NCBI GenBank assembly: GCA_011600865.1
Contig: GCA_011600865.1_4890.1
DNA from: Escherichia coli
GTDB taxonomy: Bacteria > Pseudomonadota > Gammaproteobacteria > Enterobacterales > Enterobacteriaceae
DNA: 52,276 bases
Direction: 5' to 3' (one strand)
Positions 114 to 47,218 of the stretch are shown one piece after another. The notes beneath the pieces are model-generated. The model was not told the DNA's origin and did not search any database. It saw only the letters and a list, made by a program, of their open reading frames with translations. The translations under genes were made by a program, and so were the position numbers. How positions within the stretch are numbered: the first letter of the stretch is position 1; the number at the start of each line of letters is the position of its first letter.

Positions 114-2648
114 TTACTTAAGTTTCTTGGCTTCGTCGTATCCCCGTTCGGTTAAACAGTAGATATTTGCCGATTTCCCTCTTGTGGGTTTGTATATTTG
201 GACTGCTAAATAGTCCTGGTCAATCATATCCTGTAGCATACCGTCAATAACCTTGTTATTTGCGGTTATGTTAAAGCCGTAATTGGACTTGAACCAACTT
301 AATGATTGCCGGATAGCATATATGCTAAGCCCGTTCATTTTCAGATGGTCTTCCCGTAAGCTTCTTACAACACCTTCAGGATAATGCTTGACTATGCCAG
401 ACCATCCTCTTTTTGTGTAAAGGGCCAAAATGTCCCTGTAGACTTTGAGGAAGCCGTCAACTACTTCGGCGTTGGTAGTCGGAGGTGCGACTATTCTGCT
501 TGTGTTGTTGACCCAGGCGGTTATACAACGAAGAACGTATTTGTAAGCCCATTCGATGTTGTCCCTGGTCATTACAGGAGCATCCCAGTTGTCGAGTAAG
601 CCAATCAGTGCTGCTATGTTGAACACATACTCACCCATTCGGCCCACAAAGGCGGATGCTACTTCGTTGTCCCTGTAATACTGGCGCATGTCATTAATAT
701 TGCACTGGTACTCGTACAGGAAGTCATCATCATCCGATTCGTCGTAAATAGGAATCGGGTCGTGCCTTAGTTTACCGTTAGGCGGGATAGCATTCACATA
801 AGCGATTGCTTCCAGCTTCTCAATCAGCTCCTTTGAAAAGGATGTACGGCGAATCTGCTGGCGTCGTCCTACTTTCTCAGGTTTGGCAAACTCCGCTCGC
901 TCATAGTTCGGAATGAACAGGAAGCGGGGCAAAAAGCCACTTGAGAAGTCTTGCTTCCGGGTGTTGTCAAGAATAAGCTCTTGAGTGGAGTCACCCAGGA
1001 TAGAGTAGCACGGTTCGCTTACTGTCCTGACATCATTGTCCGCATTAGCACGTTTGATACCTGTCAGTATACCACCAACCTTACGCTTGGTTGAAGCGTC
1101 CATCAGAGCTTTCTGGAAGTTGTCCGGGTTGTTAGGATTCATGCGTAAGCCTGAACCTAAAGCCAGACCAAACTCAGGGTAGAACAACTGGACTGAATGG
1201 TATGACGGGTTAGCCATCAGTTCAGCAAACGTCCTGGTTGCAAAAGTCTGTTCCCTTGGAATACGATTAAGGCTGATAGGCGATGTGTCAGGTAAACTTG
1301 CCTGGATTTGTGGGAACATTTCGGTATACAACGATTTACCGATTGATGAGCCACCCACAAGAATGATGTTGGTTACCAGGAAGTTAGCATGACCGCCTAC
1401 TGGACAAACATACTTGCGACCAGCGCAGTTGCTCAGGATGTTAAGAGCTGTGCCAATTGCATAGTCGTTAACCCTGTTAGCCGGAGATATGTTATCCTGT
1501 ATCTCAGCAATAAGCCGTTTAAACCCGGACGGGGCCGTCTTGACAAATACGTCAGATGGCAGAATATCATCGTTAACTTTGAACTCAACGTTCTCAGCCA
1601 GTGAGACACCTGAATTCTTGGTTAACTCTTTGTTGATGTCAAGAGCAAACTTGGTCTTAACGAATAAGCCGTCACGTTGCAGCTCTTTCAGCACAGTCTT
1701 ACCGACACGACTGAACCACTGATGATACTTGTCAACAGACAAGTTATGCCGGCTAGGACGACGACCTTCGTATGCTGCAGCTTTGCTGGCCATGAAGATG
1801 CGTTGTGTAACTTCATAGTTACGGGTTACACGAAGCAAGTCTTTTAAGATACGGCTTAAACGTTCAGAACCGTCGTTACTCACACCAACACCGTCTGGTG
1901 CGTGCTCGTTCAGATAGTGCTCTAAAGCCCAGCGAGTATTGTCGGCTAACTGTTCGTACAGCTCTTTGTCATACTCTTCGCCACGGTCTTCGTCTTGCTC
2001 AAACTCAACGTCAATATCAGGTGCGCTTGATTCAAGAAAGAACTTCTCAATTGCTGCATGCCATTCACGGGCTGAAACAGGATTAGCATTGAACTCACTC
2101 AATACATTGCCTGTCATTACCAGGAACATCTCAGCCTTCTGGATTTTGATGTCCAGCTGTTCGTCTTTCTCTTTAGATGTTGCTGCAGTCCATGGTAAAG
2201 GGATTGCAATGTGTTGCCCTTTGCCTGAGATTGACGTCTCGGCATAAGCACCACGAGTCCCTTCAATTATCGCCTTGTGGGTAGCTTCAATGTCTGGGTT
2301 ATCTTCATGGTTGTCCAGGTCAACAAAGTACCACTGGCGAGGAACAACCAAAGCCGGCACAAAGGTGATATTCCCCTGTACAGCTTTAATCTTCATTTCA
2401 CGGTTGCGAATACAACGTACCAGGGCGTCGTCGAAAGTCATCCACTCTTCAGGCACTGTTGTGCTGAAGGAACGGCCTGATGGCGCTCTTGCAGGTTTCT
2501 TCGGTTTGGATTGAACTTCAAGAGTCTCGTCTTCGTACGTCAGCTCAAAGATAGCCCAGCGCTTCATATCTTTGAAGACTTGGGGAATTCCTTCTGGCTT
2601 AAAGTATTTCAGACCGAGAATATCACTCGGCTGACTCGTCATTGTCAT
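114..2648 (-). CDS. DNA primase/helicase (primase-polymerase-like N-terminal region fused to a P-loop NTPase)
   Basis: 844 aa ORF. N-terminal part has an acidic YFVDLDNHED motif and SGKGQHIAIP (primase-like). C-terminal half has a Walker A-like GGSSIGKS P-loop. It heads the replication region. Confidence 0.7.
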   Translation of the reverse strand: MTMTSQPSDILGLKYFKPEGIPQVFKDMKRWAIFELTYEDETLEVQSKPKKPARAPSGRSFSTTVPEEWMTFDDALVRCIRNREMKIKAVQGNITFVPALVVPRQWYFVDLDNHEDNPDIEATHKAIIEGTRGAYAETSISGKGQHIAIPLPWTAATSKEKDEQLDIKIQKAEMFLVMTGNVLSEFNANPVSAREWHAAIEKFFLESSAPDIDVEFEQDEDRGEEYDKELYEQLADNTRWALEHYLNEHAPDGVGVSNDGSERLSRILKDLLRVTRNYEVTQRIFMASKAAAYEGRRPSRHNLSVDKYHQWFSRVGKTVLKELQRDGLFVKTKFALDINKELTKNSGVSLAENVEFKVNDDILPSDVFVKTAPSGFKRLIAEIQDNISPANRVNDYAIGTALNILSNCAGRKYVCPVGGHANFLVTNIILVGGSSIGKSLYTEMFPQIQASLPDTSPISLNRIPREQTFATRTFAELMANPSYHSVQLFYPEFGLALGSGLRMNPNNPDNFQKALMDASTKRKVGGILTGIKRANADNDVRTVSEPCYSILGDSTQELILDNTRKQDFSSGFLPRFLFIPNYERAEFAKPEKVGRRQQIRRTSFSKELIEKLEAIAYVNAIPPNGKLRHDPIPIYDESDDDDFLYEYQCNINDMRQYYRDNEVASAFVGRMGEYVFNIAALIGLLDNWDAPVMTRDNIEWAYKYVLRCITAWVNNTSRIVAPPTTNAEVVDGFLKVYRDILALYTKRGWSGIVKHYPEGVVRSLREDHLKMNGLSIYAIRQSLSWFKSNYGFNITANNKVIDGMLQDMIDQDYLAVQIYKPTRGKSANIYCLTERGYDEAKKLK

Positions 2649-2955
2649 TGCTGGTTACCTTAGAAGTTGGCTTGTAGTAATAAGATGATTCAGTGTGTTG
2701 ACGTATTGTCAAATAGCCTTCCTCTACAAGTCGGTCAAGACCTTCCTTGATTTTAGCCCGGGCTGCTTCGGGGTCTTTATAATACTCCGCTGCAGGTACG
2801 AGTGTTAGTGGTGATTTAGTAAAGTAGCGAGTTGGTAACTCTTTATTGAACAGGCCGACTTTTGTGATACCGCGTTGCTTGCAGGCATATTCATTGCCTT
2901 CAGCGAGTAGCTTAATACCGTTGCGAATATGCCGCAACAGTTTTGGCTTTATCAT
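2623..2955 (-). CDS. Hypothetical protein, possible small DNA-binding regulator
   Basis: 110 aa basic ORF just upstream of, and overlapping by 26 nt, the primase/helicase start; read from the divergent AT-rich promoter region near 3000. Confidence 0.45.
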   Translation of the reverse strand: MIKPKLLRHIRNGIKLLAEGNEYACKQRGITKVGLFNKELPTRYFTKSPLTLVPAAEYYKDPEAARAKIKEGLDRLVEEGYLTIRQHTESSYYYKPTSKVTSNDNDESAE

Positions 2956-3048
2956 TGAGTCTCTCCTCTTGTTTGTGGGGCTCTCATTATATACACGTTA
3001 TTAAGCCAGAGTAAATAGACTTTTATGTATTTTATACATTTATATCTA

Positions 3049-3077
3049 TTTACTTTCCCCTCCTTTATATACATAAT
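3049..3077 (+). promoter_or_regulatory. Sigma70-like promoter for the first plus-strand early gene
   Basis: TTTACT (3049-3054), 17 nt spacer, CATAAT (3072-3077), about 30 nt upstream of the ATG at 3109. Confidence 0.4.
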
Positions 3078-3108
3078 AGACGTACATTCTGCTAAGGAGA
3101 TACAACCA

Positions 3109-3546
3109 ATGTTTCACACACTCAAGACCTTTCAGGGCGTCAGTCCTAATACCGACGAACAAGTAATTGTACAGCACTTTGTTACATTCAGAACCAGCGA
3201 CATCGTTGACATCAGCGTTGTTGTGCACAATGATGTTGCTGAAACTGTGTATCTTACTTTGCGCGGCACCCAGGACGAAGACGGCGCACCACCTTGCATG
3301 ACATTCCACCGTGACGGTCATACTGAAGCTGTTGAAGCGCTGGTTGCATTGCGTGATGCACTTCATATTACACCTACTTACTTCACTGACAATGACGGTA
3401 GCTTGTTCCCGTACAGCAACGTCATGTATGTCAACATCAAAACACGGACCATGCACCTGGTGAATGGTGTTGCTATCGCACTCACCAAAGCCGAGTTTGA
3501 CCGGTTCTATGACGAGTATCGTAACTGGATGGACTTATATAAATAG
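3109..3546 (+). CDS. Hypothetical protein
   Basis: In-frame ATG at 3109 preceded by AAGGAGA (3094-3100); the ORF-track start at 3025 lies inside the promoter region and has no RBS. 145 aa. Confidence 0.6.
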   Translation: MFHTLKTFQGVSPNTDEQVIVQHFVTFRTSDIVDISVVVHNDVAETVYLTLRGTQDEDGAPPCMTFHRDGHTEAVEALVALRDALHITPTYFTDNDGSLFPYSNVMYVNIKTRTMHLVNGVAIALTKAEFDRFYDEYRNWMDLYK

Positions 3547-3556
3547 GAGTAATTAA

Positions 3557-3925
3557 GTGAGTAATCAACCAGCTATGTCGTTAGTGTACCAGGCACCAGC
3601 TAAGACTGGTGAGTTTGCCGGTACCATTCACGTAATCCACGCGGAAGAAATCATCAGCATTGCATTCGTGGAAAAAACAAAGAAAGAAAAAGCTTTACGC
3701 GTCACCACTAAAAGTGGTATAATAGACATAACGGATATTGTTGCGGGCCAAGCCCTACGTACAATGTTCAATAACTATTGCGTACTGATCGGTGCAACTA
3801 TGCACATGCAACCTGAGGAAACAACTGATGGCACTGACCCCACAAGAACTGGAATCGATGGACACGGAACAGCTGTACGACAAGCTAGCGAATCTGAACC
3901 GCTGGATGGCGCAAGCGAAAGCTGA
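3557..3925 (+). CDS. Hypothetical protein
   Basis: GTG start at 3557 preceded by AGGAG (3546-3550). The 3' end overlaps the next gene by about 98 nt, so the extent is uncertain. Confidence 0.45.
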   Translation: MSNQPAMSLVYQAPAKTGEFAGTIHVIHAEEIISIAFVEKTKKEKALRVTTKSGIIDITDIVAGQALRTMFNNYCVLIGATMHMQPEETTDGTDPTRTGIDGHGTAVRQASESEPLDGASES

Positions 3926-4268
3926 CCAGGAGACATTGCGCCGGACCATTAAAGCACGTCTTGAACGTGACATGATTATCAACCGCGGTAAAGAAGGTAC
4001 ACAAACGGTTGAGTTCAGCATGCATGGCGTACCTGGTAAACTCAAGGTTGAGCAGAAGGTTAACCGCTCACTTGCTCAGAAGCTCGTGCCTGACGTAATG
4101 AAGAAGTTACCGAAGGCTGTTGTTGCCAAGCTGTTTAAAACCAAGTATGAAATGTCAGTTACTGCATACCGTAACCTGACACCAGAACAGCTGGCTATCG
4201 TCGACCCTGTTGTGAAGACTTCACCAGGTATTCCGACTGTAACATTCACACCGGCAGATACGGAATAA
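3828..4268 (+). CDS. Hypothetical protein
   Basis: ATG at 3828 with GAGGAA RBS 8 nt upstream; 146 aa; followed by a terminator hairpin. Confidence 0.55.
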   Translation: MALTPQELESMDTEQLYDKLANLNRWMAQAKADQETLRRTIKARLERDMIINRGKEGTQTVEFSMHGVPGKLKVEQKVNRSLAQKLVPDVMKKLPKAVVAKLFKTKYEMSVTAYRNLTPEQLAIVDPVVKTSPGIPTVTFTPADTE

Positions 4269-8683: not shown

Positions 8684-9169
8684 ATGCAAAAGAAGAAGAT
8701 GGACAAGTGGGACAAGCGCTTTATGCGCATAGCTTGTGAAGTTGCAAGCTGGTCTAAGGACCCGAAACGCCAAGTTGGTAGCGTTCTTGTAGACCAGAAC
8801 AAGCGTATTATTTCCACTGGATATAACGGCTTACCTACGCAGTTAGACTCTATAAGAATAGTGCCTAATAGCCTCAAGAACGCTCTAACTATTCATAGCG
8901 AGATAAACACCTTAGCTAATATAAGGAGTGAGTTAGACACTCCTTCTTTAGGCCCGGTTACCATCTACATAACCTACCCGCCGTGCGAACATTGTGCTGA
9001 CATGCTGATAGCCAACCTTAGCCTGGTACGTGTAGTTGCATTGGCACATACAGCTTCACAGTCCAAGTGGAAAGAGAGCATGGCAAATGCCGTCGCTCAT
9101 TTGTGGGCCCATAATATTGTATACGACGAATTCAGCATTGAGGAGTTTAATAATGCCCAGTCCGTTTGA
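8684..9169 (+). CDS. Deoxycytidylate (dCMP) deaminase
   Basis: CDA-fold zinc motifs HSE (HxE) and PCEHCA (PCxxC), plus the dCMP-deaminase-type N-terminal region VGSVLVDQNKRIISTGYNGLP. Confidence 0.85.
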   Translation: MQKKKMDKWDKRFMRIACEVASWSKDPKRQVGSVLVDQNKRIISTGYNGLPTQLDSIRIVPNSLKNALTIHSEINTLANIRSELDTPSLGPVTIYITYPPCEHCADMLIANLSLVRVVALAHTASQSKWKESMANAVAHLWAHNIVYDEFSIEEFNNAQSV

Positions 9170-13111: not shown

Positions 13112-13146
13112 AAAAGGACCAGTTAACGCTGGTCCTTTTTATTTTA
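13112..13146 (+). terminator. Strong intrinsic terminator
   Basis: Perfect 10 bp stem aaaggaccag / ctggtccttt with loop ttaacg, followed by a T-run. Confidence 0.75.
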
Positions 13147-13166
13147 CCCGAAGCATAAAAAGTGCT

Positions 13167-13194
13167 TTACCACTAGAGAGTGATGTGGTATAAT
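13167..13194 (+). promoter_or_regulatory. Sigma70-like extended -10 promoter
   Basis: TTTACC (13167-13172), 16 nt spacer, TGGTATAAT (TATAAT at 13189-13194). Confidence 0.5.
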
Positions 13195-13220: not shown

Positions 13221-13619
13221 ATGAATCTACAACGTGTCGCTGAAGCTTATTATAGAATTTGGGTACTTCGTCTTGAAGGTCAAATTGACTACGTAAACAC
13301 TGTCGGTCGTGAAGACTACCTGCCTGCATCCTCTTTCCATGAGGTATGCAACCTTGCTCAAACACTCGAGCATGAATTTGATAAGGTTAAATTTACACGC
13401 GAAGCGCAAAATAACTTTATCAAATTTGAAACAACCATGCGTTGCAAGTTCCCGTTTATCAAGCGTATATCTCGTACCGGCCTTTTCATTGTCCCCTTTC
13501 CTGTGGGTAAAGACCGTTGGGACGTATTAGAGAAGGCCCGACATATAATCTGGTCTACTGAAACAAAACGTAAGTTTATCGAAACTGTTTGTAAGGAGTT
13601 AAGAAATGCGATTCAGTAA
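13221..13619 (+). CDS. Hypothetical protein
   Basis: 132 aa ORF with GGAGAG RBS; overlaps the start of the next gene. Confidence 0.6.
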   Translation: MNLQRVAEAYYRIWVLRLEGQIDYVNTVGREDYLPASSFHEVCNLAQTLEHEFDKVKFTREAQNNFIKFETTMRCKFPFIKRISRTGLFIVPFPVGKDRWDVLEKARHIIWSTETKRKFIETVCKELRNAIQ

Positions 13620-14199
13620 AATTGCTGCAGGTGTTACAGCTTTCCACGAGAAGTTTGACCTCAAGCCAATTAGCCAAGGTGGTAAGCCAGAGTTCAAACT
13701 TCGTTATGACCGTCTTATTGAAGAGATGGATGAAATTAAACAAGCTAAGAAGGAAGGCGATAAAGCTGGATTCTTAGACGGTATTGTAGACTTAATCTAT
13801 ATTGCTGCAGGTACGTTATACCTGTATGACCAGACAGCATGGTTCACCAACGAATTTGAGTATCCGATTCTGTTGACTACGCCCTGCGGATTTATGGACC
13901 GCTTTGACGCTGAAGGTCTTATCGTGTATGTTAAGGATACCGAAGACACTCATTGCGATCGTTTGGCGCAGTTAATTATCCACCTGATTACCTGGTGTGC
14001 AAACAACAACTGGCCACTTGACGACGCATGGGATGCGGTACAGGCCGCTAACATGGCGAAAGAACGCGCCAAGCCTGATGCAAGCAATAGTAAGCATAAG
14101 TCTGGTCAGGATATTGTTAAGCCTGAAGGATGGAAAGCACCTGATATTCAGGCAATCATCGACGCACACGTTAACCCGGCCCAAAAGGAACTGTTTTAA
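13606..14199 (+). CDS. MazG-like nucleoside triphosphate pyrophosphohydrolase
   Basis: 197 aa; acidic metal-binding type motifs EEMDE and DGIVDL typical of all-alpha MazG/HisE-like NTP pyrophosphatases; stop overlaps the start of the thymidylate-synthase-fold gene. Confidence 0.6.
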   Translation: MRFSKIAAGVTAFHEKFDLKPISQGGKPEFKLRYDRLIEEMDEIKQAKKEGDKAGFLDGIVDLIYIAAGTLYLYDQTAWFTNEFEYPILLTTPCGFMDRFDAEGLIVYVKDTEDTHCDRLAQLIIHLITWCANNNWPLDDAWDAVQAANMAKERAKPDASNSKHKSGQDIVKPEGWKAPDIQAIIDAHVNPAQKELF

Positions 14200-15083
14200 T
14201 GAAAACATACAGCACTGTCGATTCTCTTTACAGCGACATCATTTCGTTTATCCTGCGTAAGGGTGAAGATGTCGAAGACCGTACAGGTGTTGGTACACGC
14301 CGTTGTTTTGGTACAGCGTTTAAGCTGGCTTTCAAGGACAACAAACTGATGGTGCCGGTATTTAAACCTGTTAACATCAAAGCTGTTGCTGCTGAGCTTT
14401 ATTGCTTTATTAACGGCATTTCAAATGTCGATACACTCAAAGGTTTTGGCTGCAACTGGTGGGAAGGTAATCTGCAAGATGCAAACAAACGTTGGGGTAC
14501 ACCAGACAACCGTGATTTAGGGCCTGTGTACGGCGTGCAGTGGGTTAAGCCATTCTATAAGAATGGTGTTCTCACTAACCAGCTTAAAGATGTTATTGAA
14601 ACGCTGAAGGTTAAACCTACCGACCGCCGGGCATACATTACGGCATGGAACCCACAAGAGATGGACGCCATGGCCCTTCCGCCTTGCTACCATGGTTTTC
14701 AGCTGTTCATTAACAACCGTAATGAATTAGAGCTGATGTTCCATATGCGTAGCGCGGATGTTATTCTGGGTCTGCCTCATGACATTCTGCTACATCAGAT
14801 GTTGCAGATTACCATCGCAGCAGAGCTGGGTGTTGGGGTAGGGGATATGACTGTAACCTTGGGTGATTATCATATCTATAAGAACCATATCGACGCTGCC
14901 AAGATTTTCTTACAGCGCATCGTGAGCAATACAGACACCACGCTGGACACTAACTTTGAAGGCCGTCCTGACATTAACGCGATTTACGACGTGTCAGTAT
15001 TTGACTTCACTCCTGCCGCTGTTACGCCAATGGTTGAGAAGTACAAGCCAATGCCAAACATCAAACTCCAAATGGCCGTATAA
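14199..15083 (+). CDS. Thymidylate synthase family enzyme; specificity residue suggests a dCMP C5-hydroxymethylase or dCMP methylase rather than canonical ThyA
   Basis: 294 aa with ThyA hallmarks DRTGVGT, DLGPVYGVQW, YITAWNP, catalytic Cys163 in PPCYH (TGC 14685-14687) and GDYHIYKNH. The residue aligning with E. coli ThyA Asn177 (GLPFN) is Asp195 (GLPHD, GAC 14781-14783). Alignment done by eye against ThyA recalled from memory. Confidence 0.8.
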   Translation: MKTYSTVDSLYSDIISFILRKGEDVEDRTGVGTRRCFGTAFKLAFKDNKLMVPVFKPVNIKAVAAELYCFINGISNVDTLKGFGCNWWEGNLQDANKRWGTPDNRDLGPVYGVQWVKPFYKNGVLTNQLKDVIETLKVKPTDRRAYITAWNPQEMDAMALPPCYHGFQLFINNRNELELMFHMRSADVILGLPHDILLHQMLQITIAAELGVGVGDMTVTLGDYHIYKNHIDAAKIFLQRIVSNTDTTLDTNFEGRPDINAIYDVSVFDFTPAAVTPMVEKYKPMPNIKLQMAV

Positions 15084-15090
15084 GATGGAG

Positions 15091-15106
15091 CGGGGCTCCG
15101 GCCCCG
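15091..15106 (+). terminator. Terminator-like hairpin
   Basis: cggggc / gccccg stem with a tccg tetraloop between the TS-fold gene and the next gene. Confidence 0.3.
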
Positions 15107-15113
15107 TTATACT

Positions 15114-16109
15114 ATGAGCAAGTTTAACTATGACACCAAACAAATACAGACTGCCGTTCAACAAGCTCGTCCCATCAAGTATACTGATAGCGGTCTTATG
15201 GGCAAAATATGGATTGCAGACGGAACAATCCATTCATACTACAAGAACGTATTACTACGAGCACCATGTAAAGGATTCCCCGACCTGCAAGTGGATGCTG
15301 AATCGTTTCGTAAGGCCGTTAATGCGGCAAGAACTGAAGAGATTACTTTTAACATTACAGCAGCTGGAAACCTCACAGTCACAGCAGGCGTACTTAAAAC
15401 AAGAATGCAAGCGCTTAATGAACCAATACCACCGCTTGCTACAGTTAACAACTGGTATTCAGCTCATGGCGAATTACTACCGGTATTAACAGCCCTGGCC
15501 AAATGGGTACCTAACGAGGCACCGCAGGTATGGGCAACATCTTTACTTCTGCGCGATGGCTATGCTTACGCTACTAACGGCAAGTATATGATTCGTGAGA
15601 AGCTGAATGTTGATTTTGAATTTGAATGTGCCATAGCCAAGCCAATGCTTGAGGCTTTGGTTAAGCTGAAGATGGAACCCACAAGTGTAGGATACGCCCG
15701 CGGTCAGATGTTCTTCGGCTTTGCAGACGGCGTACAAATGGATGCTCCGGTACTGGCGGCTAAATGGCCAGACGTATCGAAGTTCTTCAATATGGAAATG
15801 GATATGCAGGCCATCACTCCTGAGTTCCTGGAAGTTATGGACCAGCTTACAGGTTACGATGAAGGTCAAGCCATTCTGGAGATAACTGGCGAGTCAACAG
15901 CAAAAGCAGATTTACCAGACAAGATTATTCCGAAGATGTCCGTCGACATTAAGTTCCAGTCGACTAAGTTTAGTAAACCGTTCAACTGTGTTATTAGCCA
16001 GATGAGTAAACTGGCTAAAGGCATGGAAAGAATAGGACTTGGTAGTCAGGCGCTCAAAATGGAAAACTCAACTCGTACAGTTGTAATCGCGTATGTGAGA
16101 GGGGACTGA
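15114..16109 (+). CDS. Hypothetical protein, possibly a DnaN-like sliding clamp
   Basis: 331 aa directly upstream of, and start-stop coupled with, the DNA polymerase. YAYATNGKYMI resembles the beta-clamp ATDGHRL motif and the C-terminus VVIAYV resembles the DnaN C-terminus; the product call is tentative. Confidence 0.55.
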   Translation: MSKFNYDTKQIQTAVQQARPIKYTDSGLMGKIWIADGTIHSYYKNVLLRAPCKGFPDLQVDAESFRKAVNAARTEEITFNITAAGNLTVTAGVLKTRMQALNEPIPPLATVNNWYSAHGELLPVLTALAKWVPNEAPQVWATSLLLRDGYAYATNGKYMIREKLNVDFEFECAIAKPMLEALVKLKMEPTSVGYARGQMFFGFADGVQMDAPVLAAKWPDVSKFFNMEMDMQAITPEFLEVMDQLTGYDEGQAILEITGESTAKADLPDKIIPKMSVDIKFQSTKFSKPFNCVISQMSKLAKGMERIGLGSQALKMENSTRTVVIAYVRGD

Positions 16110-18076
16110 TGAGCTTTTTATTCGATAGCTTTGAAGGTGCAAAGAATGTTAAACCTATCAGCCGTCCTATACCATACGTCAGGGATACTGGATGGCGGCC
16201 GCGCGCGCATTACCCGGATTTGTCTTCTGCGAAGATTATCGGTCTTGACTGTGAAACATACGACCCAGGGATGGATACAAATGGTAGTGGTTGGGCCAGG
16301 AGGGAAGGTCATATCGTTGGAGTTAGTATCGCTACGGACAATGGCTTCAAGGCTTACTACCCAATCAGACACGAGCTCGGCGAAGAGGATAACCTTCCAG
16401 CTGAGGAAGTACTTGGTTGGCTTCGGCGCGAACTCTCGCGACCTAACCAAGTTAAAGTCGGTGCTAACATCACATATGACTTGGGCTGGCTTGCAGCAGA
16501 AGGCGTGGAAGTCAAAGGATTGTGCATGGATGTACAATTCGCGGAAGCATTACTCGACCCAGGCGCGCGTGTTGCACTTGAAGGACTTGGACGAAAATAT
16601 GTAGGCGAAGGTAAAGACTCAGCCGAGATGTACCAATGGATTTCAGATGCTTATGGATGTAAGCCAACAGGTGAAGCCAGAAAGTACATCTACAAAACGC
16701 CTCCTCGTCTTGTGGGTTACTACGCTGAATCTGACGCCGACTTACCAATACACATTATCAAAGCCCAGTGGCCTTTGTTAAGTCGCTGGTGTTTAACAGA
16801 CGTATTCTATATGGAGTGCAAGCTCATTCCATTAATGCTTAAGATGCGTTTTGCAGGTGTGCGTGTTGACCTTGACAAAGCCAAAGAGGCTGATGATACG
16901 CTTAGCGCTGAAATAAGGAAAATGCACCAGCAGATTAAAGACCAGATTGGCTTTAATATTAACGTTAACTCAGGTCCTGATTTAGCACTTGCATTTGACC
17001 ATTTAGGTCTGGAGTACTTCAAAACAGCGGCGGGTAATCCGTCGTTTACGGCAGACTTCTTAGCAGGTTTGCACCATCCGTTCGCGGAACTGGTGTCTGA
17101 GATTAAGTCTTATGAGAAAATCCAGTCCACGTTTATTCGTGGCTATATATTGGGGATGAATACAAATGGCTTCCTTCACGGTCAATTCCATCAAATGCGC
17201 GGTGATGACGGTGGAACCGTTAGTGGTCGGTTTAGCTCATCTGACCCTAATCTGCAGAATATACCGTCTCGACACAAAATACTGGGACCACTCCTTCGTG
17301 CTTGTTTCGTACCGGACGTCGGACACAGATGGGGATCAGCAGACTACGCCCAAATTGAATATAGATTCATGGCGCATTTTGCAGTCGGCCCGGGCGCTGA
17401 TGAGTTACGAGCAATTTTCGCGGCTAACCCGGAAGCAGATTACCACAATGTTATGGTCGATATTATCAAGGAAGCATCAGGTCACGTTATAGAGCGTAAA
17501 CCGGCTAAGACCATCAACTTTGGTTTGTTATACGGCATGATGCTTAATGCTCTTGCCCGTAAGTTAGCAATGACGCCTGAAGAAGCAGAACCTGTTCTGA
17601 AGGCGTATCATCAGGGTGCGCCATTTATCGGCGCTACCATGAAGCACTACGAGGATTTATGCTATAGCCAGGGGTACGTAGAAACCTTTATGGGCCGGAA
17701 GACATGGTTCAACAAATGGGTTCCAAAGCGTGGTGGATTCGGTAAGATGCCTTTGCCATTTGAAGAAGCACGTCAGGAGTACGGTCCGAACATTAAACTG
17801 GCAGACACCCACAAGGCAATCAACCGAGTGCTGCAAGGGTCGTCAGCGGACCAGATGAAGTCTGCAATGCTGAAAGGATATGAAGACGGTTACTTCGACG
17901 TGATTGGCGTACCTCGCCTGACGGTACACGATGAGCTTAACTTCTCTCTACCAGCTGGTAAGCAAGCAGAAGATGGATTCTATGATTTCGTACGGGTCAT
18001 GGAAACTGTGCTACCGCTTCGTGTACCTGTTCTTACTGATGCTAAGATAGAAAGTAACTGGGCAGAGGCACACTAA
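16109..18076 (+). CDS. Family A DNA polymerase with 3'-5' exonuclease domain
   Basis: Exo I motif LDCETYD; polymerase motif A DYAQIEYR, motif B RKPAKTINFGLLYGM and motif C VHDE. Confidence 0.92.
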   Translation: MSFLFDSFEGAKNVKPISRPIPYVRDTGWRPRAHYPDLSSAKIIGLDCETYDPGMDTNGSGWARREGHIVGVSIATDNGFKAYYPIRHELGEEDNLPAEEVLGWLRRELSRPNQVKVGANITYDLGWLAAEGVEVKGLCMDVQFAEALLDPGARVALEGLGRKYVGEGKDSAEMYQWISDAYGCKPTGEARKYIYKTPPRLVGYYAESDADLPIHIIKAQWPLLSRWCLTDVFYMECKLIPLMLKMRFAGVRVDLDKAKEADDTLSAEIRKMHQQIKDQIGFNINVNSGPDLALAFDHLGLEYFKTAAGNPSFTADFLAGLHHPFAELVSEIKSYEKIQSTFIRGYILGMNTNGFLHGQFHQMRGDDGGTVSGRFSSSDPNLQNIPSRHKILGPLLRACFVPDVGHRWGSADYAQIEYRFMAHFAVGPGADELRAIFAANPEADYHNVMVDIIKEASGHVIERKPAKTINFGLLYGMMLNALARKLAMTPEEAEPVLKAYHQGAPFIGATMKHYEDLCYSQGYVETFMGRKTWFNKWVPKRGGFGKMPLPFEEARQEYGPNIKLADTHKAINRVLQGSSADQMKSAMLKGYEDGYFDVIGVPRLTVHDELNFSLPAGKQAEDGFYDFVRVMETVLPLRVPVLTDAKIESNWAEAH

Positions 18077-45352: not shown

Positions 45353-46053
45353 CAGATTACTCCATCCATATGCTTACGGATAATTTTAAGACGATTTGCC
45401 AGGTCGTCTGCACGACGTTTTTCAGCGTCACGCTGGGCAATAAGCGCTTTACGCTCTTCACTGAAAGCACGGTTGTTAGCAACAGCTGTACCGTTAAGAC
45501 TACGAATCTCAGCCTCATATTCTTCAGCGCGTTTGCCCATCAGTTGCTGCAGGTCGTTAATCTGTCGCTTATAGGCAGTAATAAGCTCAGACGCGTCTTT
45601 ATTGCAGCTTTCCAGCTTGCAGATATGCTCCTGCAGCATCTGCACATGCGCCCAGCCTTTAGCAATTTCGCGAGCTGACATATCAGCTAACATACGGTCT
45701 GGCATAGGAGCGCCAGCGTAGTTTGAAGCCTTGCACAAGTACCAGTTTAGCGCACTGCTGAACATCTCACCGGTACGATATTCCAGCTCGTCGTTGAACT
45801 TTAGTTGTTCACTAATTTCATCGTCAGAAGTAGTAATGCTGATGCTTTCGTCATAACCCTCGATGTTAATCTCAATGCTGACGCCTTCAGTACCAGTCAC
45901 TTCGTTGTCTTCAAGCGCACGTTTAGCCAGACGTAACAGGTCGTCACCTGACAGGTTCGGGTTAGTTGAACCCACAGTAACGGTCTTGTTGACTTCTCCT
46001 ACAGTTGCGGACAGGGTGATTGTGCTATTGTGTACAGGGCTCATTTGTTCCAC
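45352..46053 (-). CDS. Hypothetical protein (coiled-coil C-terminus)
   Basis: 233 aa; the C-terminal half is charged and helical. Confidence 0.5.
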   Translation of the reverse strand: MEQMSPVHNSTITLSATVGEVNKTVTVGSTNPNLSGDDLLRLAKRALEDNEVTGTEGVSIEINIEGYDESISITTSDDEISEQLKFNDELEYRTGEMFSSALNWYLCKASNYAGAPMPDRMLADMSAREIAKGWAHVQMLQEHICKLESCNKDASELITAYKRQINDLQQLMGKRAEEYEAEIRSLNGTAVANNRAFSEERKALIAQRDAEKRRADDLANRLKIIRKHMDGVI

Positions 46054-46547
46054 TCCTTATTAATACGTTCGTTGATGTATTCAAGAGCTGCTTCAGGACC
46101 GTCTTCTTCAACAGTCCAGTCATAGATGAAGAACTGCTTGCTCATCAGAACCAGTTCGTCAATGAGGTTGTCATACTGGTTGTATAACGCCTCAAGATTT
46201 TCCACAACGCCAGGCATCTCGTCTTTTGTAGTTGCCAGTACCTTTTCAACAGGTGGCATACAAAAGATAACGATGGCGTTGTCACACATATCTGCTACAT
46301 GTGATACATTAATATTGATGACAGGCGTACGTTGAAGAACCAGACAATAGATATACTCAGATATAACAGCGCTGCGGTCATAAATACAATCGCCTTCCAA
46401 CGCGTTTTCTTTGGCCTGTTTAGCCATGACCGATTCGGGATCTTTGTCAACAGTATTATGAATAACACTGCGGCCAGTACGAGATTTAAGGAACTCAATA
46501 AGTGTACTTTTACCAGCATTGTCCGGGCCCTCGATTATGATGTTCAT
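46041..46547 (-). CDS. Thymidylate-kinase-like (deoxy)nucleoside monophosphate kinase
   Basis: P-loop IEGPDNAGKST at the N-terminus and a DR motif (YDRSAV) about 50 residues later, as in TMP kinases; 168 aa. Confidence 0.65.
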   Translation of the reverse strand: MNIIIEGPDNAGKSTLIEFLKSRTGRSVIHNTVDKDPESVMAKQAKENALEGDCIYDRSAVISEYIYCLVLQRTPVININVSHVADMCDNAIVIFCMPPVEKVLATTKDEMPGVVENLEALYNQYDNLIDELVLMSKQFFIYDWTVEEDGPEAALEYINERINKEWNK

Positions 46548-47218
46548 TTGTGTAAACTCCTGTACCGTTGTATCAGAACTTGTTTGTTATCAACATATTC
46601 ATCATTATATGTAAAGTCGCTATCAATGTACATCATTAATTTGTTACAATCCATTAAAATATCACTTGGACCTGAATGCTTAATTGTACTGATAAACATG
46701 TTGTCGATACGGAGCAAGTCTTTTGCATGTTCTTCAAGGGCCGAAAGTATCAATTCGGCACCACCTACAATCCAGACGTCAGTACCTCTGGATTCAAGGT
46801 CTGCTGCCATCTCACCCAAATTATTGTAGCCTTCTGAAGCCATAATCTGACGAGATACCGGCAGCAGTATTCTGTGGGCTGACATAGGCAGACTCATAGT
46901 CATATACGTGTTACGACCGGCTAACAATACACTATGCCCTACCATTTTTACCGTTACGTCTGCTATCATGTTTCGCAACTGGTCATTTGAGAACTGTCCA
47001 CGTAGTTGCTGATACGCATTATAGCCTGGTTCTGTCGCAATTGAATTAGTCATAGTCCTGAAAAAGAGCATGTCTGACGGACATTTCCAGGGGAGACCCG
47101 ATTTAGGAAGCGCACGGACCTCTTCCATGGTCTTGCACGAGTCCACCTGATGCTTCATGAACTCCGGGGACAACCCGAATTCCCCATTTTGGCCCATTGC
47201 AAAGATAATATTAATCAC
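46544..47218 (-). CDS. Dihydrofolate reductase-like protein
   Basis: N-terminal MINIIFAMGQNGEFG, a GLPW motif and a later IVGG motif resemble DHFR (compared from memory with T4 Frd), with insertions; 224 aa. Confidence 0.55.
   Translation of the reverse strand: MINIIFAMGQNGEFGLSPEFMKHQVDSCKTMEEVRALPKSGLPWKCPSDMLFFRTMTNSIATEPGYNAYQQLRGQFSNDQLRNMIADVTVKMVGHSVLLAGRNTYMTMSLPMSAHRILLPVSRQIMASEGYNNLGEMAADLESRGTDVWIVGGAELILSALEEHAKDLLRIDNMFISTIKHSGPSDILMDCNKLMMYIDSDFTYNDEYVDNKQVLIQRYRSLHK

Follow-up and report, generated by a model that had tools for sequence, protein, structure and literature searches.

The closest described counterparts of the locus considered here are phages that make 5-methylcytosine (5mC) at the nucleotide level. 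Phage XP12 has all-5mC DNA, and its thymidylate synthase (TS) homologue was shown to make 5-methyldeoxycytidine (5mdC). In XP12, as in Pseudomonas phage PaMx74, a PRA-PH hydrolase, the TS homologue, a deaminase of the deoxycytidine monophosphate (dCMP)/deoxycytidine triphosphate (dCTP) family and dihydrofolate reductase (DHFR) constitute a 5-methyl-dCMP pathway, and the four XP12 genes stand in one row with a family A DNA polymerase (PolA) gene nearby. This kind of system is already described, for XP12, in the MetaGPA study of 2021 and in a preprint of 2024 on 5mC deaminases (10.1101/2024.12.05.627091). The preprint reported that 5mdC is formed in vivo by the XP12 TS and by five of seven Asp-type TS homologues from metagenomes; that dCMP deaminases on modified-cytosine contigs are accompanied most often by the domains Thymidylat_synt, MafB19-deam, PRA-PH and DNA_pol_A, with PRA-PH and PolA also among the most frequent companions of Asp-type TS; and that a linked deaminase turns 5mdCTP into dTTP. 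Here, we describe a pair of genes at 13606-15083 in a stretch of 52,276 bp (the window, by which we mean the whole stretch analysed) from Escherichia coli assembly GCA_011600865.1. The window has 46% GC and is a Rosemountvirus-like myovirus that shares 93-96% identity with Salmonella and E. coli phages of the genus Rosemountvirus, IntR, emiel, yarpen, SE13, BP63 and LPSEYT among them. We consider it probable, at roughly 0.72, that the pair forms the centre of an XP12-type pre-replicative pathway by which 5mC takes the place of cytosine in virion DNA, and we conclude that it is not a T4-type hydroxymethyl pathway. This reading is supported by alignment, clade analysis, a structure model, conserved synteny, the parallel with XP12 and published restriction data on relatives. 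The dCMP-methylating trick is known from XP12, and is so far unrecognised in this widely used phage group.

The plus-strand gene at 14199-15083 encodes a TS-family enzyme of 294 aa, predicted from Pfam and PHROG matches, alignments and a structure model to be a dCMP C5-methyltransferase (5-methyl-dCMP synthase); it was the only TS-family gene found in six frames of the window. As an earlier sequence-only reading of this DNA had proposed, the protein has the TS fold: it matches Pfam Thymidylat_synt (PF00303) over its full length with 211.7 bits (cut-off 24.3; residues 11-294 on profile positions 3-266 of 266), and it matches the PHROG thymidylate synthase family. In alignment with E. coli ThyA (a sequence identical to NC_000913 thyA), Cys163 (TGC, 14685-14687) corresponds to the catalytic C146, and the phosphate-binding arginines R28, R143, R144 and R184 correspond to R21, R126, R127 and R166. 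The enzyme shares with the ThyA proteins of E. coli and human the fold, the catalytic Cys, this Arg quartet, E58, W80, Y94, L143, D169, H207, Y209 and the C-terminal Val. Alignment and model thus describe what appears to be a complete TS-type catalyst, in which the Cys nucleophile, the phosphate-binding Arg residues, the folate and hydride-transfer residues and the C-terminal lid are all kept. Conservation of W83 was not used because it depends on the alignment (Trp in one, Asn91 in the other).

The differences from ThyA lie in base recognition. HMMER alignments to solved TS structures set SADVILGLPHD of the window enzyme against SCDMGLGVPFN without a gap, which places Asp195 (GAC, 14781-14783) at the position of E. 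coli ThyA Asn177, and the alignment to ThyA itself gave the same result; the by-eye assignment of the sequence-only reading was right. Asp also occupies this column in T4 gp42 (GFRND) and in the XP12 TS (GLPYD). The His147 and Gln165 of the canonical O4 water network are replaced by Tyr164 and Met183, and F176 by His194. Of the 12 residues within 6 Å of C5 of dUMP (as listed in PMC13326640), eight are identical to ThyA and four, at H147, Q165, C168 and N177, differ, so that the first-shell changes are N177D, H147Y, Q165M and C168A, with F176H in addition; the predicted substrate is dCMP, not dUMP. Replacing Asn177 by Asp has been reported to make TS act on dCMP instead of dUMP (Liu & Santi 1992; Hardy & Nalivaika 1992; Graves; as cited in PMC8670742 and 10.1101/2024.12.05.627091), and positions 177 and 147 were the two at which modified-cytosine and unmodified metavirome contigs differed most in residue conservation (PMC8670742). 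The substitutions N177D, H147Y, Q165M and F176H may accordingly represent a base-recognition network rebuilt for cytosine, as judged from alignment and model.

The gene could alternatively encode an ordinary TS that converts dUMP to dTMP, as GenBank has it ("thymidylate synthase" in every record inspected), with the restriction resistance of the relatives described below having an unrelated cause. The enzyme scores 173.8 on TIGR03284, the thymidylate synthase equivalog (cut-off 108.35), and in sequence and fold it is most similar to canonical ThyA: identity is 36% to E. coli ThyA, 29% to the XP12 TS and 22% to T4 gp42, and the comparison figures by class were 26-29 for canonical TS, 23.7 for the MilA CMP hydroxymethylase, 21.1 for a flavin-dependent dCMP monooxygenase and 18.1 for T4 dCMP hydroxymethylase. 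A dCMP deaminase, DHFR and a TMP-kinase-like protein also form the classical dTMP set, which is how the authors of the phage S144 study read it (PMC7432712), and two members of the clade to which the enzyme belongs carry Asn at 177. However, Asn177, His147 and Gln165, the network that reads O4 and N3 of uracil, are all replaced, two of them at the very positions singled out in the metavirome comparison and one by the exchange reported to redirect TS to dCMP, and five other ThyA equivalog models (NF002497, NF002496, NF002499, NF002495 and NF002498) were missed by 140-350 bits. We regard an ordinary TS as very unlikely. Since the enzyme exceeds the TIGR03284 cut-off, annotation pipelines keep calling it ThyA.

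Which C5 product is made can be predicted from diagnostic residues that derive from experimentally characterised homologues (PMC13326640, PMC8670742). A bulky hydrophobic residue at position 143 goes with a methyl product and Asp or Glu with a hydroxymethyl product, and D169N marks the flavin-dependent 5-hydroxy-dCMP synthases (PMC13326640). The window enzyme has Leu160 at 143, with no acidic residue there, a state in which water would be excluded and a methyl product formed, and Asp187 at 169; the set of D177, Y147, L143 and D169 is what a 5-methyl-dCMP synthase is predicted to have. In TS chemistry, methyl transfer alone, and not hydroxymethylation, turns the folate into dihydrofolate. The DHFR-like gene that the window retains fits reductive methylation, as does the intact C-terminal lid. 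A flavin-dependent 5-hydroxy-dCMP synthase such as RB69 gp48 or DLP3 gp80 would share the TS family, and the sequence speaks against it so consistently (Asp187 is invariant throughout the clade in place of the D169N mark, Leu and not Glu stands at 143, and no arabinosyl- or glycosyltransferase cluster accompanies the gene) that we give it almost no credence.

A more serious comparison is with T4 gp42, a dCMP hydroxymethylase, whose counterpart here would lead to virion DNA with 5-hydroxymethylcytosine (5hmC), possibly decorated. The window enzyme shares with gp42 the Asp at N177 and the Met at Q165. It differs in having Leu160 where gp42 has Asp and in keeping a C-terminal tail (...PNIKLQMAV) that is conserved across the clade, whereas the aligned gp42 is about 45 residues shorter at this end and lacks the C-terminal lid; the presence of DHFR also argues against hydroxymethylation. 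The sequence-only reading had left 5-hydroxymethyl- and 5-methylcytosine side by side, and of the two the 5-methyl product is now favoured by L143, the tail, DHFR and, as shown next, ScaI digestion, so that the 5-hydroxymethyl product appears quite improbable.

Restriction data are available for two relatives whose TS proteins, 74% (S144) and 61% (fHy-Eco03) identical to the window enzyme, have the identical active-site signature and an adjacent pyrophosphatase gene. The only enzymes that cut S144 DNA were SspI and PacI, whose sites consist of A and T, whereas seven enzymes with C/G-containing sites failed to cut it; its authors described it as "modified on the cytosine", found no gene to account for this and took the TS to be canonical (PMC7432712). 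fHy-Eco03 DNA resisted nine of ten enzymes and was cut by ScaI alone, into exactly the predicted fragments, and the modification was called unknown (PMC8145870). In the NEB tables (PMC7653180), all of these resistant enzymes and tested isoschizomers for which a result on XP12 5mC DNA is tabulated, a set to which MauBI does not belong, are blocked on that DNA: NcoI, NotI, SphI, AflII, EagI, Sau3AI, SmaI and XhoI, as well as the GGCGCC cutters, SacII and PspOMI. The same tables give ScaI as partial on XP12 5mC DNA and fully blocked on T4gt 5hmC DNA. The S144 data alone cannot separate 5mC from 5hmC, and it is the cutting of the relative's DNA by ScaI, as of 5mC DNA and unlike 5hmC DNA, that does so; taken together, the patterns of the two phages agree with 5mC and speak against 5hmC or bulky adducts.

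It could also be that 5-methyl-dC, or another C5 product, is an intermediate that unrecognised ORFs convert, fully or partly, to a different or hypermodified base; the sequence-only reading had likewise allowed for further modification by transferases. About half of the early ORFs have no recognisable family, neither the S144 nor the fHy-Eco03 authors could explain the modification, and phage 5mC dioxygenase routes are known (PMC8256090). On the other hand, a PHROG and Pfam screen of 31 of the ORFs of at least 90 aa, with structural-region and smaller ORFs outside it, revealed no DpdA/7-deazaguanine, DNA methyltransferase, glycosyltransferase or other transferase, dioxygenase or sugar-nucleotide gene, which also removes support for an unrelated cause of resistance next to an ordinary TS, and the RefSeq annotation of phage yarpen contains no DpdA/7-deazaguanine, DNA methyltransferase, glycosyltransferase or dioxygenase gene. 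The exact ScaI fragments of fHy-Eco03 argue against bulky hypermodification, and plain 5mC already explains the full restriction pattern. We therefore consider conversion to another base unlikely.

The gene upstream, at 13606-14199 on the plus strand, encodes a 197-aa all-alpha nucleoside triphosphate (NTP) pyrophosphohydrolase of the PRA-PH/MazG superfamily, with a fold closest to the dimeric d(C/U)TPases. The MazG-like pyrophosphatase named in the sequence-only reading was confirmed at the family level: the protein matches Pfam PRA-PH (PF01503) with 32.2 bits (cut-off 21.3), its acidic metal-binding helix residues E39, E40, E43, D58 and D62 are invariant in 22-24 homologues, and its structure model (pLDDT 90) has the four-helix all-alpha fold. 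Its stop and the start of the TS gene overlap in TAATG. To the dimeric all-alpha dUTPases and d(C/U)TPases (C. jejuni, L. major, staphylococcal phage) and to MazG/HisE it shows about 10% identity, and its Pfam family is PRA-PH, not dUTPase_2. Among its detectable homologues is an XP12 protein that is named "hydrolase (HAD superfamily)" and is really a PRA-PH protein (55.7 bits), whose gene lies directly upstream of the gene for the XP12 TS homologue. Compared with this XP12 protein, the window protein has an insertion of about 60 residues and lacks the C-terminal extension. Its role is presumably to hydrolyse dCTP, possibly dUTP, to the monophosphate and pyrophosphate; its base specificity is not readable from sequence. 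Annotation of this family is itself a trap: PRA-PH pyrophosphatases are labelled "Cof hydrolase" or "HAD superfamily hydrolase", in XP12 too (L002 46207-46980), and in the records inspected the counterparts of the present gene are called hypothetical, "Cof hydrolase" or "nucleotide pyrophosphohydrolase".

The window thus resembles XP12 in carrying PRA-PH, deaminase and DHFR genes together with a TS-family gene, with PRA-PH directly upstream of the TS gene, and homology of each XP12 gene to its counterpart was detectable except for the kinase. The window enzyme and the XP12 TS share the Asp at N177 and the replacement of the H147/Q165 network. They differ in that the two enzymes are 29% identical as noted, with L143 and the full ...MAV tail kept in the window enzyme; in that the deaminase and DHFR genes of the window lie 5 kb and 32 kb away, whereas in XP12 they are contiguous; and in the enterobacterial host and myovirus virion of the window phage. 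The sequence-only reading had drawn its parallel with the T4 gp42/gp56 set. XP12 proved the better parallel, and with gp56, a member of Pfam dUTPase_2, the 197-aa protein has the structural class alone in common. Its broader proposal, a pre-replicative cytosine C5-modification pathway in which a TS-fold enzyme switched to dCMP works beside a pyrophosphatase, is supported.

The remaining genes of the putative pathway, of which that reading had also listed all but the polymerase gene, are distributed over the window. The plus-strand gene at 8684-9169 encodes a protein of the dCMP/dCTP deaminase family (Pfam PF00383, 76 bits, plus MafB19-deam) that is 33% identical to the XP12 deaminase. Its best solved-structure match is 7fh4, the PBCV-1 dCMP/dCTP deaminase, which is also the best solved relative named for the 5mC-selective deaminase (10.1101/2024.12.05.627091). 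It may produce thymidylate from 5-methyl-dC nucleotides, or dUMP from dCMP. On the minus strand, 46544-47218 encodes a DHFR-like protein of 224 aa (phrog_316, 92 bits; Pfam DHFR_1, 28.9 bits, cut-off 25) with the motif LPW..P.D..FF, in which LPWKCPSDMLFFRTMT aligns to LPWHLPADLAYFKRVT of DHFR, and which would recycle the dihydrofolate from reductive methylation. An insertion of about 35 residues follows this motif, DHFR profiles match the protein only piecewise, and its weak NCBIfam matches are trimethoprim-resistant DfrA variants. The minus-strand gene at 46041-46547 encodes a P-loop dNMP-kinase-like protein, annotated as thymidylate kinase; the TMP-kinase-like assignment held as far as a P-loop protein with a PHROG match (phrog_761, 94 bits), and curated models gave it little backing. 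Its putative role is to convert 5-methyl-dCMP to 5-methyl-dCDP. The plus-strand gene at 16109-18076 encodes a PolA that would incorporate the modified dNTP.

In the pathway that we propose, the TS-family enzyme would convert dCMP and methylene-tetrahydrofolate (THF) to 5-methyl-dCMP and dihydrofolate, and the DHFR-like protein would regenerate THF. The translationally coupled pyrophosphatase upstream would hydrolyse dCTP, possibly also dUTP, to the monophosphate, thereby both feeding the methylase and keeping unmodified cytosine out of DNA. The phage P-loop kinase and host nucleoside diphosphate kinase would phosphorylate 5-methyl-dCMP up to the triphosphate, the form in which the phage PolA would incorporate it. 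The deaminase, as proposed for XP12, would convert some of the 5-methyl-dC nucleotides to thymidine nucleotides, and because thymidine nucleotides would be supplied in this way, no dUMP-specific TS would be needed. The expected outcome is DNA resistant to cleavage at most C-containing type II restriction sites: the phage probably builds its DNA with 5mC instead of cytosine.

Database homologues of the enzyme fall into two sharp groups, 31 proteins at 50-97% identity and canonical 264-aa ThyA proteins at 38% or less. The 31-member clade occurs on phage-sized contigs of 45-54 kb, and at least 56 genome records carry the TS-family gene at 60% identity or more. Relative to ThyA, the clade signature is H147Y, Q165M, F176H and N177D, with Asp at 177 in 29 of the 31 members from the protein database and in every phage relative checked, and the clade keeps R21, E58, W80, Y94, R126, R127, L143, C146, R166, S167, D169, H207, Y209 and the C-terminal ...MAV. 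In a neighbour-joining tree, the clade stands beside canonical ThyA and not with XP12 or gp42, which suggests that it arose separately from the XP12 TS. The order of deaminase, then pyrophosphatase, TS, clamp and PolA, together with the TAATG junction, is kept in S144, and the same order and junction are kept in metagenomic relatives with a TS identity of 54-59%. A tentative extension, which we think doubtful as a whole, is that the clade represents an independent, convergent change of a ThyA-like enzyme into a dCMP methylase that makes 5mC and, from dCMP, all thymidine, combined with an early ORF acting against type IV restriction. With the deaminase, a single TS-family enzyme could then free enterobacterial myoviruses from host ThyA and dUMP, and a conserved early ORF such as ORF132, described below, could shield the 5mC genome from McrBC/McrA-like type IV restriction.

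Several points weigh against the proposal of an XP12-type 5mC pathway. XP12's own methylase has Gln or Asn in the 143 column in our alignments, and L143 is therefore sufficient but not necessary for methylation; the rule for this position is correlative. Two of the seven Asp-type TS homologues gave no 5mdC (10.1101/2024.12.05.627091), and two clade members, P0013 and P0021, on contigs of 1.0-1.6 kb, have Asn at 177 and R127K while keeping Y147, M165 and H176; these could be natural revertants or dUMP-using variants. The nearest structural relatives of the pyrophosphatase are dUTPases, and neither blastp nor hhalign found significant similarity between it and T4 gp56. The kinase-like protein has only P-loop-level matches in Pfam, NCBIfam and PDB, which makes its assignment weak. 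All experimental data come from S144, a member of a sister genus, and fHy-Eco03, an unclassified relative, and ScaI digestion was complete on fHy-Eco03 and only partial on XP12. Finally, a genome with 5mC throughout would be expected to fall to McrBC-type restriction in E. coli. The host of phage CF2, given in GenBank as MG1655 (McrBC+), was considered as a test of 5mC and proved uninformative, because the source paper propagated the phage on extraintestinal pathogenic E. coli (ExPEC) CP9. CF2 (KY608966) is itself a Rosemountvirus-like genome of 53 kb that is filed as UNVERIFIED under Straboviridae/Tequatrovirus.

Papers on the Rosemountvirus members swi3, vB_SenM-1, PA13076, ZCSE2 and AV127 contain no restriction or modification data, the literature searched yielded no paper linking these phages to 5mC, and according to a comparative paper of 2025 nucleotide-modifying enzymes are missing from these genera. 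Among candidates for the biocontrol or therapy of Salmonella and E. coli, Rosemountvirus, Loughboroughvirus and their relatives rank with the phages that are isolated most often. If correct, an XP12-type 5mC pathway would explain the restriction-resistant DNA that two groups left unexplained in relatives, and would mean that these phages evade classical restriction-modification while type IV systems are a vulnerability, with a bearing on host range and cocktail design. It would also warn of artefacts in nanopore base-calling, restriction cloning and genome engineering, and would offer an easily grown E. coli or Salmonella source of fully 5mC DNA. Biotechnology would gain a dCMP methylase of ThyA-like type and perhaps a deaminase selective for 5mC. 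The finding is useful for a heavily used phage group, and introduces no new principle or new kind of biology.

Footprints of modification in the window sequence were slight. Avoidance of palindromes did not differ between AT-only and G/C-containing sites. When sites were instead grouped by whether XP12 DNA is cleavable or blocked, a weak trend appeared (one-sided p = 0.045, or 0.08 without GATC; p = 0.17 with 5hmC statuses), which is suggestive at most of a cytosine-modification footprint. GATC is extremely strongly avoided over 1-52276 (26 observed against 155 expected, z = -13), GATATC (EcoRV) is absent against 12.8 expected, and CTAG occurs 37 times against 75 expected; XP12 does not avoid GATC. 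MboI and DpnII still cut 5mC DNA at GATC, and hence 5mC would not protect these sites.

Around the gene pair, an intrinsic terminator-like hairpin at 13112-13139 (plus strand; a stem of 12 bp with a T-run behind it) ends the preceding transcription unit, and a sigma-70-like promoter follows at 13166-13194 (plus strand; TTTACC-17-TATAAT, extended TG, 10/12, a consensus match only). This promoter is likely the start of a unit of ORF132, pyrophosphatase and TS, which lie downstream of it with consecutive overlapping stops and starts and are probably co-transcribed. ORF132 (13221-13619, plus strand; phrog_36727), whose end overlaps the start of the pyrophosphatase gene by 14 nt, has no Pfam match, and its homologues occupy the matching position in S144 and fHy-Eco03; standing behind the promoter of the unit, it may have a role in the pathway or in anti-restriction. 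GenBank notes on fHy-Eco03 (1116-4257) report TS, pyrophosphatase, the ORF132 homologue and PolA by liquid chromatography-tandem mass spectrometry in purified virion preparations, so that the four proteins are expressed. The window PolA is weakly similar to XP12 PolA (L007 928-3216; tblastn 2e-6), and the PolA of XP12's family was reported independently, in the comparative paper of 2025 mentioned above, to resemble that of Rosemountvirus and Loughboroughvirus; this likeness hints at a shared history of replication and nucleotide-modification genes across unrelated virion types. Between the TS stop and the start of the clamp gene lies a GC-rich hairpin (GCGGGGCUCCGGCCCCGU; 15089-15106, plus strand) with an 8-bp stem and without a T-run, the surrounding 51 nt having a dG of -19 kcal/mol (z -2.1), and in S144 a promoter is annotated in the equivalent gap.

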